Shown: piece after piece, positions 3,765 to 63,734 of the stretch | Numbering within the stretch: the first letter of the stretch is position 1 | How the letters are laid out: each line of letters begins with the position of its first letter | From: Candidatus Methanomethylophilaceae archaeon | Lineage (GTDB): Archaea > Thermoplasmatota > Thermoplasmata > Methanomassiliicoccales > Methanomethylophilaceae | Direction: 5' to 3' | DNA length: 64,000 nucleotides | NCBI GenBank assembly: GCA_944320495.1 | Contig: CALUHR010000005.1 | Span: forward strand, 64,001-128,000 | Position numbers and translations under genes: made by a program | The notes under the pieces: model-generated | Told to the model about the DNA's origin: nothing | The model's database searches: none | The model's input: only the letters and a program-made list of their open reading frames with translations

Positions 3765-6700
3765 ATGCCCCTCAGAATAGTCTATGTCACGATACAGAGC
3801 GTCGATGCATCCTTATTCCGCGAACCGGCGGAGGAGGTGTGCCGTGAGAACGGCTGGGATCTGGACCTGTTCTGCGCGAACGATTCCGACGTAGACGAGG
3901 ACCCGCTGCTGTACCACGAACTGTCACTCAGGACGAAGACGGCCGACCTCGTGCTGGTGAGGGTCATGGCCGATCCGACGAGGATGCGCCGCTTCGAGCA
4001 GTGGGAGAAGGTACTGAGGGAGTGCCCCGGGTACGTGCACGTGTACTCCGGGAACCTGGAGGTCTCCCTGGTCTACCGCGACCTGTTCAAGGGCGACGAC
4101 AGGGAGTACATGAGGCTCCGCGAGTTCGTGAGAGGACGCGGGGCGGAGAACGACCGCGCCATCGTGCAGTGGGTGCACCATGCGGTCACCGGCGAGGGGG
4201 ACGTGCCGGACCCGGTGGAGCATCGCCCCAACGGCATCTACCACCCGGACTTCGATAGGGACGTTACGCTGGACGAGTATCTGGCACATCTGGACCCCTC
4301 CAAGCCCACCATCGGCCTGATGTTCACCGCCAACCTCTGGATCTACGGGAACCTGGAGCACATCGACGCGTTCATCCGCGAGACGGAGTCCCAGGGCATG
4401 AACATCATCCCGGTTTTCTTCTCGTCGGTGGCCAGCAGGACCGACGGGAACGAGGGGAGCGTCGCCATCGTCCGCGAGTACTTCACCGAGGGCGGGAGGG
4501 GCAGGGTGGACGCCCTCGTCATGGCGACCCCGTTCTCCCAGCTCAACAACTCCAGGGACTGCTCCGGCGTCTACACGCCGGACTGGCAGAACTACTTCCA
4601 CACGCTCACCGACGTGCCCGTGTTCCAGGCGATGTCCGTGTCCGCGCACTTCGCCGACTACGAGGAGAGCGCCGAGGGGCTATCCAAGGGCGACTTCGGC
4701 ATGAACGTCATCTGGCCCGAGGTGGACGGGCAGATAATCACCGTGCCCTTCGCCAGCAACGAGAGGGGCAGGGGCGGACCGAAGGTCTACACACCGCTCC
4801 CGGACAGGATAAGACGCCTCGTGTCCACCGTCGGCGCCTGGGCGAGGCTCAGGCACAAGCCCGCATCCGAGAGGAGGATAGCCATCCTGATGTACCAGTC
4901 CAGGCCGGACTCCGGTAGGATCGGAGGGGCCGCAGGCCTTGACACGATGCAGAGCATCAGGGACATGCTCGAGCGCATGTCGTCGCTCGGCTACACGGTG
5001 TACCACGTCCCGGAGACCTCCAGGGCTCTGACCGACGAGATCCTCGACAACATCACCAACGACCTGGAGTGGTCGTCGGAGGAGAGGGTCCGCGAGAAGG
5101 CCGCCGCCATGGTGCCCATGTCCGACTACGAGCCGGAGTACGGGAGGTTATCCGAGTTCAACCGCAGGCGCATGGAGGAGAGCTGGGGGAAGGCCCCCGG
5201 CACCGTTTCCGTCCAGGACGGCAGGTTCGTCATCCCCGGGATCGTCAACGGGAACGTCTACATCGGCTACCAGCCCCTGAGGTCCTGGGCCGACCAGATG
5301 GAGTCCGTCTACCACGACCCGGTGGTGCCGATGCCCCACCAGTACCTGGCGTTCTACCGCTGGCTCAAGTACGTGTTCAAGGCGGACGCCGTGGTGCATG
5401 TGGGCACACACGGGACGCTGGAATGGCTCCCGGGCAGGAGCCTGGGACTGTCGGGGAAGTGCTTCCCGGACCTGGTCCTGGACTCGATCCCCAACATCTA
5501 CCCCTATGTGATCGACGACCCCGGCGAGGGGATACAGTGCAAGCGCAGGTCCGAGGCGGTGCTCATAGGGCACATGTGCCCCACGATGGCCCGCGCCGGT
5601 TCGTATGAGACGCTGGAGGCGGTCGACGGTCCGCTCCAGGAGGTCTTCAAGAACACCGCCGCCAAGGGCGAGCAGAGGAGGGCGATGGTGTCCGAGGTCC
5701 TGGACGCCGCCAGGGAGGCGGACCTGCTGAGGGAGCTCGGGATACCCGACGGCATATCGCCGGAGGACTTCGAGGGCGAGCTTGGCAGGATCCACGACTA
5801 CATCACGGACATCAAGGACACGATAATCCGCGACGGGCTGCACGTGCTCGGCAGGGCCCCGGAGGGGGAGCTGCTGACGGAGAGCGTCTACTCGCTCACC
5901 CGCGTCAGGAACGGCGACGTGCCGTCGCTCCGCTCCGCCGTGGCGTCAGCCATGGGCTTCGACCTTGACGCCCTGCTGGACGACAGCTCCGACATGACGG
6001 ACGGGGAGCTGAACAGCGTCATCCTGGACAGGGTCGATGACAGGGTCATGTCGCTCATCGCCGACATGCAGGCGGCGGGATACGCGAAGGATGGGTGCCT
6101 CGCCCTGGCCGCGGATGTCGGCGATTCGGACGGCCTGACGAAGGCCGTCGTGTACATCTGCGACACCCTGGTGCCGAACCTCGCCCGCATGACGGACGAG
6201 ATGGGGAACATGATGCACGCCTTCGAGGGCGGATACGTTCTCCCGGGGCCGTCCGGCGCGCCGACCCGCGGGAACGCGGACATCCTGCCGATGGGGAGGA
6301 ACTTCTACGGCATCGACCCGGACATCGTCCCCACGAAGGCGGCCTGGGAGATCGGCCGGCGCATGGCGGACCAGATGGTGGAGCGCTACACGAGGGAGAG
6401 GGGATCCTACCCCACGGAGGTGGGATTCATCATCTGGGCCACGGACACCATGAAGACCAACGGCGACGACGTGGCCTACATCCTGTGGCTCATGGGCGTG
6501 AGGCCCGTGTGGTCCTCCAACGGCGGGCAGGTCGTCGGCCTGGAGCCGGTGCCTCTTGAGGAGCTCGGCCGCCCCAGGATAGACGTGACCGTGAGGATAA
6601 CGGGACTGTTCAGGGACGCGTTCCCCAACCTCATCGACCTCATCGACGATGCCGTCCAGCTCATCGCCGGATTGGACGAGGGCGACGAGGACAACGCCCT

Positions 6701-45985: not shown

Positions 45986-47110
45986 ATGAACTACAAGTTG
46001 CTATCTATCATCGCCGTCGGGGCGATGCTCCTGACCGCCTTCGCGGCGGTCGACGCGTCCGCGGAGGACGCGGGCTTCGACATCACCGACGACACCGGGA
46101 AGACCGTCCACTTCGACGGCCCAGCCGAACACATAGCAGTCAACGGAACCGGAGCCGTACTCACCATCGCGGACGCGGGGGCCGTTGACAAGATCGTCGC
46201 GGTAGACCAGTATTCCACCTATGAGAGAACCGGATACGAGCAACTCAAGGGCCTCGATGCCATCAACCTTGGGAGCTTCTTCTACGAAACGAACCACGAC
46301 CTCATCGTCACATCCCTACTCAACCTCGTCAGTGAGGGAAAGATGACAGTGGACGACCCGGTCATCCTCACCGGATTCGCTCAGAATGCTGCGCTCAGGG
46401 AAATCCTCGAGGAAGCGGGATTCACCCACGTTCTCGTCTGGATGACCCAGAACATCACCGAGTACGACGACATCGTCGACTTCGTCGAGGACCTCACGAT
46501 GATCGCCACCGGCGAGCGCAGCGAATCCATCCAGCAGATGAGGGAGAAGATCGAGTACGTATCCTCCACCGTCTCCCAGGTACCTGAGGGCGAGAGGGCC
46601 AAGGCAATCTCCGTATGGTACACCAGCTCCACCGGAAGCCTGATGGTCAACAACATCGGAATCGCGGGAAGCATGCTCGAGCTCTGCAACGCCGAAAACA
46701 TCGGATACCGCGAGGACGGCGGAAGCAGATATGGGGACGACAACACCGTGATCAGCCTTCTGGGAGAGAACCCCGGGACCATCATCTTCATCTCCGACAG
46801 CTATGCCAGCTCCGGAAAGACTGCCGAAGACTTCCGCAACGAGTTCCTCGGTGGTAGTACCGACTACCCCATCGTCCTCATGGGGGCCCTCTGGAACAAC
46901 TACTGCCCCGAATCCGCCGACGGACTCATCCTGATGGCACAGGCCCTCTACCCCGAGTTGTTCGATGCCCAAGGAGGCGACGACACCCCGTCAGGCGACG
47001 ACACCTCCGACGGTTCCGATAATAACGCCCTCCTGTGGGCCGTCGCGCTGATAGTCGCCATCATTATAGTGGTGGCAGCATACGCCGTCTTCAAGAGGAC
47101 CCACACATGA
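45986..47110 (+). CDS. BtuF/FecB-type substrate-binding protein with C-terminal TM anchor
   Basis: ITDDTGKTV...AGAVDKIVAVD; signal peptide; C-terminal TM helix. Confidence 0.85.
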   Translation: MNYKLLSIIAVGAMLLTAFAAVDASAEDAGFDITDDTGKTVHFDGPAEHIAVNGTGAVLTIADAGAVDKIVAVDQYSTYERTGYEQLKGLDAINLGSFFYETNHDLIVTSLLNLVSEGKMTVDDPVILTGFAQNAALREILEEAGFTHVLVWMTQNITEYDDIVDFVEDLTMIATGERSESIQQMREKIEYVSSTVSQVPEGERAKAISVWYTSSTGSLMVNNIGIAGSMLELCNAENIGYREDGGSRYGDDNTVISLLGENPGTIIFISDSYASSGKTAEDFRNEFLGGSTDYPIVLMGALWNNYCPESADGLILMAQALYPELFDAQGGDDTPSGDDTSDGSDNNALLWAVALIVAIIIVVAAYAVFKRTHT

Positions 47111-48141
47111 GAAACGATTCAGCAGGACGGAGGATAACGAGAATCGGTCTGACCGCCATAGTTCTGATTGCGGTCACACTGGTCTTCGTCCTGCTGGATC
47201 TTGCCTGGGCAGGAACCAGGATCCTCTCCCTCGGAGAGGTCTGGTCCGCCCTCATGGGCGATGGCACCTGGGCCAACGACATAATCGTCAACCATAGGAA
47301 CGCGCCCCGTATCATCGCGGCCATCGTCATAGGGGCCGGACTGGCCGTCACCGGTTGCGTCATGCAGGCGGTGTTCAGAAACCCCCTGGCCACACCATAC
47401 ATCCTTGGACTCTCATCCGGAGCATCCCTGGGATCGGCATTCGCCATCATGCTCGTGCCTGCATCGATGATGGCTCTCGCCCAGCCCGTACTCGCTTTCG
47501 CGATGTGCCTTCTGACCACGTTCCTCGTCTATACCGTCTCCCGCTCCGGAGGAACGATGGTCAGGACGGAGACGCTCGTCCTTGCCGGAGTGGCCATCTC
47601 ATCCCTGTTCTCAGCCGTGGTCTCGTTCCTCACCTATGTGGCCCCCAGCGACAAGATGCAGAACATCGTCTTCTGGACCATGGGCAGCCTCGGAGGAGTC
47701 GGATACGAGGAACTGACCGTCGTGCTTCCCATAGTAATCATCGGAATTGTTCTGATGCTGACCCAGTGCAGAAACCTCAACGCCATGATGATCGGCGACT
47801 CCCACGCGATGGACCTCGGGGTGGACGTCAGGAAGGTCAGGATCGCCCTCCTGATCGTCTCTTCCTTCGTGGTCGCTGCCTGCGTCGCGTTCGTCGGAAC
47901 GATCGGGTTCGTCGGTCTCGTCATCCCCCACATCCTGAGGATGGTGATGGGGCCCGACAACCGCCTCATCATGCCCATGAGCGTCATAGGCGGTGCCGCC
48001 TTCCTCCTGATCAGCGACTGGGTCGCGCACATCGTGGCCCCCTACTACGGAGTGCTTCCCATCGGAGTCGTGACAGCCCTGGTCGGAGGTCCCTTCTTCA
48101 TCTACCTCCTGTGCAGGAGGAAGAGGGAGGTGGGATGGTGA
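47107..48141 (+). CDS. FecCD/BtuC permease
   Basis: FRNPLATPYILGLSSGA, GTIGFVGLVIPH, LPIGVV. Confidence 0.9.
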   Translation: MRNDSAGRRITRIGLTAIVLIAVTLVFVLLDLAWAGTRILSLGEVWSALMGDGTWANDIIVNHRNAPRIIAAIVIGAGLAVTGCVMQAVFRNPLATPYILGLSSGASLGSAFAIMLVPASMMALAQPVLAFAMCLLTTFLVYTVSRSGGTMVRTETLVLAGVAISSLFSAVVSFLTYVAPSDKMQNIVFWTMGSLGGVGYEELTVVLPIVIIGIVLMLTQCRNLNAMMIGDSHAMDLGVDVRKVRIALLIVSSFVVAACVAFVGTIGFVGLVIPHILRMVMGPDNRLIMPMSVIGGAAFLLISDWVAHIVAPYYGVLPIGVVTALVGGPFFIYLLCRRKREVGW

Positions 48142-48929
48142 CGTCCCCGCTCGAGGTCCGCGAGCTCGGATACGACTATGACGGGAGGTCCATCCTCGAC
48201 TCCGTCACATGGGACCTCCGCAAGGGGGAGATCCTCGGCGTCCTGGGCCCCAACGGATGCGGCAAGACCACTATGCTGAGGAACCTCAACAGGAACCTCT
48301 CGCCCAAACGCGGATGCGTCGTCCTCGCCGGCACCGACCTGGAGGACATGGCCAAGAGGGACATAGCCAGGCACATCGCCGCCGTTCCCCAGAGCAACGA
48401 GATCCGCTTCGCCTTCACCGTCCGCGAGATGGTCGCCATGGGCAGGATGCCCTTCCAGGAGGCCTTCCGCGGGAACTCCTCCGAGGACGAGCGCATAATC
48501 GACGAGGCCATGGAGCTCACCGGCATCACCCACATGTCCGACCGCCTGATCAACACCATGAGCGGCGGAGAGCGTCAGCGCGTGATCATCGCACGCGCGC
48601 TGACACAGCAGCCGGAGATCCTCCTGATGGATGAGCCGACACTACATCTTGACATCAACATGCAGTTCGAGGTCCTCGACCTGGTGTCCAAACTCTCCAG
48701 GGACAGGGGGCTCACCGTCGTCATCGTGTCCCACGACCTGCCGATGGTCGCCCGCTACTGCGACAGGATCATCCTCATCCACGACAGGACCGTCTGGGCC
48801 GAGGGGAAACCCGAGGACGTCCTCACGCCGGAGAACATGCGCACGGTGTTCAACATCGACGCTAGGTTCGAGCTGGATGACAGGGGCCAGAGGACCGTGA
48901 GGCTCTACGGCGCCTGCCCCAGGGAATGA
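48135..48929 (+). CDS. FepC/BtuD-family ABC ATPase
   Basis: GPNGCGKTT, MSGGERQR, LMDEPT. Confidence 0.9.
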   Translation: MVTSPLEVRELGYDYDGRSILDSVTWDLRKGEILGVLGPNGCGKTTMLRNLNRNLSPKRGCVVLAGTDLEDMAKRDIARHIAAVPQSNEIRFAFTVREMVAMGRMPFQEAFRGNSSEDERIIDEAMELTGITHMSDRLINTMSGGERQRVIIARALTQQPEILLMDEPTLHLDINMQFEVLDLVSKLSRDRGLTVVIVSHDLPMVARYCDRIILIHDRTVWAEGKPEDVLTPENMRTVFNIDARFELDDRGQRTVRLYGACPRE

Positions 48930-48979
48930 CTATCGGTTCGTAGGATGACTCGATCGAGTTCTGCCCTCGTCGAGAACTT

Positions 48980-49206
48980 GCTGAAAGGCGGGAAGTCCGA
49001 GTGCACCGGCTTCTCAACTCTCGGTGCACCCGGAACCGTCCCGGCAGGAGGTGATACGACCCTAGTGATCATCGCTGAAATCCGGAACTCTGGTTCCTAG
49101 TGACGATCGTCACCGGCGGCGGTGTGATCGTCATTGACATTCCGTAAGGAATGCCGAGGTCTGATCCGCCTCAAGGATCCGGCTCCTTCGGGAGCCGTTA
49201 CCTCCT
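48980..49206 (+). ncRNA. Unassigned structured RNA element, copy A
   Basis: Multi-hairpin fold closed by AGGAGGTGA/TTACCTCCT, terminal CGGCTCC-TTCG-GGAGCCG; homologous to copy B. Confidence 0.55.
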
Positions 49207-49472
49207 TGGTTCTAGTAATGGACGCGTGCGATATAACAATCTGCCGACAGAGTAACCGCCGGAATACGATTCCCGGATGCCTTGAATCTTCAGAATGCTG
49301 CGCGACCACAGTCCGTTCCGACGAATGAGGACGTCATGGATGCTGCTGTCCAAGAGCTTGAGACCCTACGACACTCTACTCTCGAGGATCGGAATCGATT
49401 ATGTTTAAGGTCCTAGATCATAATTCTTATCGAAGAGCAAGTGTTAATTAGACCCATGCCAATCTCATATCC

Positions 49473-49705
49473 AGGAGGTTGACGGTCCCCGAAGGGACCG
49501 GATGCCTTCAGGGCATCACTCTTCGCCATCCATCAATGGATGACGATGGTGATCCTGACCCTGGGGGTCCTGACCACCACACGAAGCACGCCCCGACGGC
49601 GCTCGATACGGATCTTCAGGATCCTACCAACCTCCTACCGGGACGGTTCCGTGCATGCTGAGAAGGTGAGATGTCACGGCATGCACGGACTTCCCGCCTA
49701 CCAGC
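49473..49705 (-). ncRNA. Unassigned structured RNA element, copy B
   Basis: Same conserved blocks and topology; CGGTCCC-TTCG-GGGACCG; TATA-rich stretch at about 49728-49740 sits about 25 bp upstream on the minus strand. Confidence 0.6.
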
Positions 49706-49871
49706 GATTCTAGGCCAGTTGTGTATATGTTATATATTTATCGAATAGACATCTTTTATCATAACAGAATTCTACTCGATCGATCTGAAACAGCGTCAAT
49801 CCACCGCCCCGAACCGCCGATCGCTGGTTGTTGGGGAACCTACTTATCGAAGCCCGCCTACTCCCGCGCAT

Positions 49872-50219
49872 ATGCGCTGGATGCTCCGCTCCAAGATCCA
49901 CAGGGCCACCGTCACCGAGACCCGCGTCGACTACGAAGGCAGCATAACCGTCGACGAGGACCTCCTGGAACGCTCCGGGATCTGGGTCGGCGAGAAGGTG
50001 ACCGTCGCCGACGTGAACAACGGCAACCGCTTCGAGACCTACACCCTCCCGGGGAGGAGGGGCAGCGGGGTCATCGCGGTGAACGGCGCCGCCGCGCACC
50101 TCTGTGACGAGGGCGACCTCGTCATCATAATGGCGTACGAGCTCGTGGACGAGCCCATCCATGCCAAGGTGCTCCTCGTCGACGGCGACAACAGGGTCTC
50201 CAGGGAGCTGTTGTATTGA
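49872..50219 (+). CDS. panD: Aspartate 1-decarboxylase
   Basis: SKIHRATVT...YEGSITVD (GS self-cleavage site), [13 protein letters not shown]. Confidence 0.92.
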
Positions 50220-63660: not shown

Positions 63661-63734
63661 CGGGCCCGCCGGGATTCGAACCCGGGTCTGAGGCTCCGGA
63701 GGCCCCCATGCTATCCAAGCTATACTACGAGCCC
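63661..63734 (-). tRNA. tRNA-Arg(CCG), CCA not encoded
   Basis: GGGCTCG/CGGGCCC acceptor stem, GGGGC-CTCCGGA-GCCTC anticodon arm, GGTTCGAATCC T-arm. Confidence 0.93.

Follow-up and report, generated by a model that had tools for sequence, protein, structure and literature searches.

Two convergent copies of a structured RNA, found in a 64,000-nucleotide stretch of a genome of Candidatus Methanomethylophilaceae archaeon (hereafter the window), belong to a large family of RNAs that is new to Rfam. Members of this family share a multi-helix fold with a pseudoknot and a Shine-Dalgarno (SD) sequence that the RNA's own 3' end holds in a helix, followed in many copies by a small open reading frame, and promoter-like boxes lie outside both ends of the RNA. 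We propose, with a probability that we set slightly below even (about 0.45), that the family constitutes a sense/antisense module for a small protein, working like a type I toxin-antitoxin system.

Two related RNAs in the window

The original prediction had described two homologous elements of about 230 nt facing each other, and their placement was accurate, as the ends given by a covariance model of the family (R1, see below) differ from it by at most 3 nt. The two copies are approximately 70% identical and carry the following features (P1 to P10 denote the paired elements; helix numbers are those of the model).

48979..49209, plus strand: copy A, full-length member of about 231 nt (model R1, 210.8 bits, E 1e-67; fold z = -5.9)
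48979..49045, plus strand: copy A, 5' domain with P1 (UGCUG/CGGCA), P2, a conserved internal loop (GAAGU/AA) and the P3 hairpin; covarying helices 1-4
49047..49053, plus strand: copy A, Shine-Dalgarno sequence GGAGGUG, which is also the 5' strand of the closing helix; near-invariant in the family and complementary to the 16S 3' tail
49065..49147, plus strand: copy A, remnant of the mini-ORF, with GUG at 49065 and the family stop UAA at 49145-49147 in the P8 loop
49157..49171, plus strand: copy A, pseudoknot of AGG (49157-49159) with CCU (49169-49171) in the P9 loop
49163..49197, plus strand: copy A, hairpins P9 (GAUCC/GGAUC) and P10 (CGGCUCC-UUCG-GGAGCCG); helices 12 and 13
49198..49205, plus strand: copy A, anti-SD-like 3' strand of the closing helix, UUACCUCC; in the covarying helix 5 the G-U wobbles are confined to the 3' strand
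49230..49237, minus strand: TATA-like box 21-28 nt past the 3' end of copy A, candidate promoter of an RNA antisense to A
49444..49450, plus strand: TATA-like box TTAATTA 21-27 nt past the 3' end of copy B, candidate promoter of an RNA antisense to B
49471..49706, minus strand: copy B, full-length member of about 236 nt (model R1, 197.3 bits; fold z = -6.3)
49473..49481, minus strand: copy B, anti-SD-like strand, CAACCUCCU
49533..49625, minus strand: copy B, mini-ORF frame, open to a UGA (49535-49533) in the P8 loop
49629..49635, minus strand: copy B, SD-like GGAGGUU, 5' strand of the closing helix
49728..49738, minus strand: TATA box, predicted sense promoter of copy B itself

The sequence features on which the prediction rested were all recovered. 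The shared blocks AGGCGGGAAGTCCG and CGGAACCGTCCCGG(C/T)AGGAGGT stand at the places given in both copies, and the hairpin between them, re-checked in the sequence, differs between A and B and keeps its pairing. The long-range closing helices (AGGAGGTGA/TTACCTCCT in A, AGGAGGTTG/CAACCTCCT in B) and, with their compensatory changes, the two hairpins at the end were found as described, as was the TATA box about 25 nt upstream of copy B, which has no counterpart upstream of copy A. The fold scores listed above were computed against dinucleotide shuffles, none of 200 of which equalled the native fold, and the pairwise alignment of A and B already contains 16 base pairs altered at both positions.

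Comparison with known RNAs

The original prediction could match the element to no known RNA family, and the Rfam check, in which nothing in the element reached gathering scores, is in agreement. A search of positions 48850-49850 against Rfam 15 at E<=10, covering among other families the cobalamin riboswitch, RNase P type T, HEARO and HgcC-G, returned chance matches to generic tetraloop hairpin and lncRNA models only. RNase P RNA and SRP RNA were further rejected as identities for the element in that the same genome carries its own copies elsewhere (C5:19421-19713, 197 bits, and C8:15103-15411, 182 bits, respectively). A cobalamin riboswitch was also considered, as its GGGAA...GUCCC core looks similar to the element, and was rejected because no Rfam model matched the region. 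The only Rfam match in the window is a tRNA gene at 63661-63734 on the minus strand (49.3 bits). A search of the literature found no paper describing the family.

A multicopy family in Methanomethylophilaceae

A strict pattern search retrieved ten further copies in eight related genomes. As had been proposed, a covariance model (R1) was then built from twelve copies and used to search relatives, here 151 Methanomethylophilaceae genomes, the lineage being Methanomassiliicoccales, as the original prediction had supposed. It matched in 68 of them, with 1-10 copies each and more than 200 copies in all, so that the RNA is a multicopy accessory family rather than a two-copy curiosity. With a second model, restricted to the 5' domain, copies were found in 17 of the 18 genomes of one genus, in 19 of 38 from the genus of the window and in none of 16 from another; taking both models together, copy number ranges from 0 to 11 per genome. 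Since presence differs even among complete, single-contig genomes of the same genus, the RNA must be regarded as an accessory element and not as a housekeeping RNA.

The genome that contains the window (1.77 Mb, 14 contigs, 90.6% complete) has copies A and B only. Their convergent arrangement is peculiar to this locus; elsewhere the copies are single or in tandem, and tandem arrays, with a spacing of about 375 nt, are common (three consecutive copies in genome G071, for example, where the model has seven matches, six of them full-length). Among 151 sampled genomes of the class, none outside Methanomethylophilaceae had a copy apart from one marginal match. A viral or plasmid origin was rejected: a loose pattern pointed to 68 viral loci, all of which the covariance model showed to be spurious, and a specific 22-mer had 0 matches in the viral contigs of IMG/VR, where no real copy was found. 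Sixteen metagenome contigs, one of them from a human gut assembly, carry the RNA, partly in tandem.

Fold and covariation

The alignment of 71 members to the model shows that 90.6% of the cells corresponding to paired positions do pair, compared with 33-46% when the partners are slid by 1-3 columns, and that 56 of the 60 base pairs have double changes. These changes support the earlier claim that selection acts on the structure of the RNA. Because G-U pairs are frequent, the structured strand can be identified as the sense strand read earlier.

The 5' domain of the family RNA is made of three paired elements, P1 (UGCCG/CGGCA), P2 and the long hairpin P3, together with a conserved internal loop. 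Abutting it, the closing helix joins GGAGGUG to CAYCUCC at the 3' end and encloses P5-P10, among which P9 and P10 are paired in 98% of cases, with many double changes. A covariation scan revealed, in addition, a new 3-bp pseudoknot between AGG, just before P9, and CCU in the P9 loop. It consists of the pairs 326-345, 327-344 (GC 30, CG 13, AU 6, GU 3) and 331-343, and occurs among the members in the variants ACG/CGU, AAG/CUU, GGG/CCC and AAA/UUU.

A further complementarity links the apical loop of P3 (GACUUCC) to the base of this hairpin, where the conserved GGGAAGUC is located. It covaries in several members (GCAGUC/GACUGC and GUGAGC/GCUCAC, for instance), and each member's own loop fits better than the loops of other members, a result that none of 2000 permutations equalled. 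The pairing is missing in several GGGCAG variants and would be topologically awkward beside P3. It may represent an alternative or an intermolecular contact.

The Shine-Dalgarno sequence and its partner strand

The 16S rRNA tail is GGAUCACCUCCU in three members of Methanomethylophilaceae; the 16S gene was not found in the assembly of the window itself, and the anti-SD was read from the relatives G071 and G119. Being complementary to this tail, the near-invariant AGGAGGUG, which in the RNA pairs with the 3' end, is a perfect Shine-Dalgarno sequence, and in copy A an extended form of it, AGGAGGUGAU, is complementary to AUCACCUCCU of the tail. Across the family the SD is sequestered by the fold-back of the 3' end on the 5' strand (GGAGGUG/CAYCUCC, the covarying helix 5). 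The two strands of this helix do not evolve alike: GGAGGUG is near-invariant and only its partner varies, through G-U wobbles, as would be expected if the ribosome has to read the 5' strand too.

The SD/anti-SD nature of the closing helix had been pointed out in the original prediction as a hint of a role in translation or ribosome binding. The pairing is real, and so is the match of copy A to the 16S tail, whereas a role as a ribosome decoy is unlikely. In such a role the RNA would expose its SD or its anti-SD mimic and titrate 30S subunits or mRNAs. Its perfect complementarity to the 16S tail over 8-10 nt would suit this function, as would the likeness of its 3' strand to the tail of 16S rRNA with a hairpin before it; but all members pair the two strands with one another, the 3' strand drifts via wobbles and is thus not kept as a 16S mimic, and in many copies a start codon and an ORF come after the SD. 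We consider this explanation very improbable. The SD most likely serves the mini-ORF inside the RNA.

A second, local pairing of the SD is available to approximately 85% of the members (GGUG with CAUC) and shows no covariation. The conserved CAUC, located about 25 nt after the SD, could act as a transient local lock during transcription.

A mini-ORF and its predicted peptide

Among 101 unique full-length copies, 40 present the SD followed, 2-11 nt further on, by a start codon (AUG in 28, GUG or UUG in the rest) and an ORF of 21-33 codons. The other copies (about 60%) lack a canonical start codon or are frameshifted, and keep the fold and high model scores; those without a start often have ATA, ATC or GTA where others have ATG. 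The stop of the frame falls in the P8 loop, as UAA in 39, UGA in 6 and UAG in 1 of the 46 distinct copies with standard P7/P8 spacing.

The predicted peptides can be aligned across subfamilies whose nucleotide sequences have strongly diverged, roughly as M-x-I-x-x-R-x-x-G-I-R-I-x-I-...-I-x-I-D-I/W-P. Over the gap-free last 16 codons the entropy of the three codon positions is 0.99, 0.82 and 1.27, and the variable third position yields synonymous series such as CGG/CGU/CGC, CCG/CCA/CCC and AUC/AUU/AUA. The pN/pS ratio is 0.71 in the frame, against 0.85 and 0.92 in the other two, a weak contrast and one confounded by the constraint that the RNA structure places on the same bases. Residues of the peptides alternate between Ile/Val and charged ones, as in an amphipathic beta structure, and AlphaFold2, run with an 18-sequence alignment, predicts a three-stranded beta meander with a pLDDT of 96.2, although high confidence for a short, regular beta peptide is no proof of its synthesis. 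No Pfam family matched the peptide, and a fold search of the PDB gave only generic beta-meander pieces of larger barrels. A membership in the class of hydrophobic membrane-helix toxins was rejected on account of the amphipathic beta character and of the negative Pfam result.

Both copies of the window keep the fold and are disarmed as genes. In copy A, which is among the best-scoring matches of the model in spite of it, a 1-nt deletion near 49085 shifts the frame to a premature UAG at 49098-49100, and the copy has no promoter of its own; in copy B the frame is open but no AUG, GUG or UUG follows the SD.

The same data can be read in the opposite way, with the family as a purely non-coding structured RNA (a scaffold for an RNP, a protein sponge, or a ribozyme-like molecule) and the ORF as a by-product of GAUC-rich stems. 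The fold is maintained in frameshifted or start-less copies, and covariation reaches well beyond the ORF, to the 5' domain, the pseudoknot, P9, P10 and the closing helix. In addition, V/T swaps in the peptide track the covariation of the stems, the pN/pS ratio is modest, and the tetraloop-capped, pseudoknotted build recalls other orphan 'ornate' RNAs. What a non-coding RNA leaves hard to explain, unless the ribosome or 16S rRNA recognizes the sequence, is an invariant SD with a drifting partner. Nor would it account readily for an AUG at positions +5 to +8 from the SD in many divergent copies, for the variability of the third codon position with its synonymous series, or for the retention of an in-frame stop, of all three types, in the P8 loop; and the patchy, multicopy distribution is unlike that of housekeeping RNAs. 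We regard the non-coding reading as the main rival of our own, if somewhat unlikely.

A longer frame was also considered. In some loci an AUG formed with the A that precedes UGCCG, at the predicted start of the transcript, opens a 57-codon frame running through the 5' domain into the mini-ORF (L049:1500-1673, plus strand; L067:7690-7863, minus strand), and it is matched by five protein clusters from metagenomes (P0002-P0006), all exactly 57 aa long. As a leaderless ORF of the family it was rejected: it is intact in copies of the Ca. M. alvus type, but in the majority AUG-CCG-UAA stops after two codons.

Promoter-like boxes at both ends

An AT-rich, TATA-like box is found between -33 and -22 from the conserved 5' end in 85% of 67 loci, and from its position the RNA would start at the conserved UGCCG. 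A box with an equally sharp peak lies from +20 to +34 past the 3' end in 91% of the same loci; of 37 additional loci, taken from divergent genera, all 37 have it. Control windows contain AT-rich boxes in about 40% of cases. Both boxes are situated approximately 23-27 nt from the ends of the RNA and are flanked by G...C. Oriented TATA hexamers occur in a sense to antisense ratio of 44:24 upstream and 28:49 downstream, that is, as mirror images, the orientation of the downstream box resting on a modest hexamer bias among related sequences. Beyond the downstream box nothing is conserved among the loci of the family. This arrangement suggests that the mirrored box is a second promoter, which would fire back to yield an antisense RNA from the 3' boundary of the sense RNA.

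Open frames of 90-114 codons span the whole RNA on the antisense strand in about half of the loci (L032:1434-1841, minus strand, for example). Coding on this strand was rejected: no start codon is conserved in these frames, whose conservation does not extend beyond the RNA itself, and they probably arise as a side effect of the codon bias of the sense strand.

In a tandem array of the Ca. M. alvus type (L062:8120-9300) every unit has a hairpin and a T run at its end, and the 3' strand of the closing helix is at the same time the 5' arm of a terminator hairpin (CCUCUGA-GUU-UCAGAGG), which is followed by U5. Because they share this strand, the closing helix and the terminator would compete in that array.

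Genomic neighbourhood

Copy A is preceded by a FecCD-type ABC importer operon on the plus strand, at 45986-48929, with the following genes.

45986-47110, plus strand: first ORF of the operon, 374 aa, no Pfam match; may encode the substrate-binding protein
47035-48141, plus strand: FecCD permease
next to the permease and ending at 48929, plus strand: ABC ATPase

The order FecCD permease, ABC ATPase, RNA is found in the window and in at least two other genomes of the same genus, as at loci L058 and L064. Since this order is conserved there, copy A may, as originally suggested, be a 3' extension of the transcript of the ABC operon and be transcribed together with it. On the other side of the pair, to the right of the copy B promoter, a gene for a pyruvoyl-type aspartate 1-decarboxylase (PanD; PF02261, E 9e-43) occupies 49872-50219 on the plus strand. 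PanD of the bacterial type is uncommon in archaea.

Over the family as a whole the neighbours are varied and include translation factors, tRNA synthetases, flavodoxin, DUF4143 ATPases, MNT-type nucleotidyltransferases and large surface proteins. Clustering of the neighbouring proteins gave no constant partner, only spurious ORFs overlapping the RNA and the genus-level FecCD/ABC synteny. Several copies are located in variable regions (L066:8342-8686 and 5334-6602; L020, L024 and L041), and genes next to copies in such regions encode DUF4143 AAA ATPases, an MNT-type nucleotidyltransferase, a serine recombinase (L067:9205-9711) and surface proteins of about 1500 aa.

These surroundings bear on a group of explanations in which the element is the remnant of a mobile element (MITE or transposon ends), a hairpin acting at the level of DNA, or a 3' UTR or riboswitch of the ABC importer. 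The inverted arrangement of the two arms in the window, the vicinity of some copies to contig ends and the order of importer genes and RNA in three genomes of the genus can be quoted in their favour. Transposon or MITE ends were nevertheless rejected: the genome has only two copies, already diverged, paralogues elsewhere are diverged and single or in tandem, not inverted pairs, and no transposase gene recurs among the neighbours examined. The G-U pairs, moreover, denote a fold formed by RNA on one strand. A cis-regulatory riboswitch or leader was rejected likewise, given the RNA's own predicted promoter, the varied neighbours, the lack of a downstream gene on the strand of copy B and the absence of any matching riboswitch family, and the terminator hairpin with its T run in the Ca. 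M. alvus array also speaks against it. We thus give the whole group, already largely refuted, hardly any credence.

Discussion

The reading that we prefer, a module of the type I kind, would operate as follows. A TATA-box promoter would start a sense RNA of about 232 nt at the conserved UGCCG. This RNA would fold with P1-P3 stacked on the closing helix, which encloses the multi-hairpin core P5-P10 and its pseudoknot, and since the helix between the 5' and 3' parts would hold the SD shut, the full-length RNA would be translationally silent. Opening or trimming of the 3' end would permit translation and, in intact copies, ribosomes would find a start codon 2-11 nt past the SD and make a beta-strand-rich peptide of 21-33 residues, ending at the stop in the P8 loop. 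Meanwhile, the mirrored promoter past the 3' end would produce a complementary RNA controlling the stability or the translation of the sense RNA.

This interpretation is drawn from the combination of a locked SD, a small ORF, a putative cis-antisense promoter, diverged tandem copies, a narrow range and many inactivated copies. The patchy presence of the family and the lack of a constant protein neighbour form the same pattern as that of type I loci. Against it stand the many start-less or frameshifted copies that keep the fold, the weak coding signal, the non-helical peptide and the modest hexamer bias of the downstream box, and other considerations besides. Part of the peptide's regularity, the in-phase AUC codons, could stem from the conserved GAUC of the stems, and, to our knowledge, most archaea lack RNase III, which we count against a module based on antisense duplexes.

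Type I toxin-antitoxin loci of Bacteria include hok/sok, ibs/sib and ldr/rdl, txpA/RatA and bsrG/SR4 of Bacillus, and aapA1/IsoA1 of Helicobacter. A hydrophobic peptide forming a membrane helix is typical of type I toxins, although not universal. The present family resembles those loci in having a small ORF within a highly structured mRNA and an SD sequestered by a long-distance interaction between the 5' and 3' parts. It also appears to share with them a cis-antisense partner, which here is deduced from the mirrored promoter-like box alone. Their copies are, in both cases, multiple, often in tandem and diverged, with a narrow taxonomic range, and many of the chromosomal ones are inactivated. 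The family differs from them in its archaeal host, in the predicted peptide, an amphipathic three-stranded beta meander instead of the typical hydrophobic helix, and in an RNA fold that is far more elaborate and is conserved even in start-less copies. On these grounds it is plausible that the architecture represents an archaeal variant of a type I-like module.

According to a recent preprint (bioRxiv 10.64898/2026.06.17.732947), type I systems have not so far been found among Archaea. The strongest form of our reading would make the family the first one, with a 5'-3'-locked ribosome binding site and a fully overlapping antisense RNA controlling a beta-meander toxin of 27-30 residues, and with start-less copies retained as RNAs, perhaps to serve as decoys for the antisense RNA. 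Toxicity on the part of the peptide is an additional assumption, and in this specific form the proposal is doubtful.

The same anatomy would serve equally a benign small protein under RNA control, the peptide then being a stress or regulatory micro-protein. Pairs of this kind exist in an archaeal methanogen: spRNA23/asRNA93 and spRNA24/asRNA94 of Methanosarcina mazei each combine a small-protein RNA and an antisense partner, and their effect is a benefit, higher salt tolerance, and not toxicity or killing (bioRxiv 10.1101/2025.10.28.685009). They have in common with our family intergenic small-ORF RNAs, a cis-antisense RNA (predicted in our case) and a proposed silencing of the translation of a small protein. 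There is no relation between them in sequence or structure, the M. mazei RNAs being little structured, confined to single loci and expressed experimentally, whereas here hundreds of copies with a conserved multi-helix fold are known from sequence alone. A benign function would also agree with a peptide that does not look like a membrane helix. A selfish or toxic gene would agree better with the frequent loss of the start codon, the variation from 0 to 11 copies and the amplification in tandem, and we judge a benign protein to be distinctly unlikely.

With respect to structure, the closest analogues are the orphan RNAs raiA, OLE, ROOL, GOLLD and HEARO, which are also lineage-restricted, strongly covarying and pseudoknotted, two of them (HEARO and ROOL) being multicopy as well. 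The family described here is set apart from them by its smaller size (about 232 nt), its archaeal host, a mini-ORF whose SD is locked and a promoter-like box beyond either end.

Methanogens of the Methanomethylophilaceae are widespread in the guts of humans and animals, and their RNA biology is almost unstudied. For this group, the family provides a new structured RNA whose unusually clean covariation and pseudoknot make it suited to an Rfam entry and to structural work, and in which one sequence is constrained at once by the fold of the RNA and, apparently, by that of a peptide. The differences in copy number between close relatives offer a possible strain marker and a handle on the genome dynamics of gut archaea. 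Finally, the family is a candidate, open to testing, for a form of translation in Archaea that is locked at the SD and controlled by antisense RNA.
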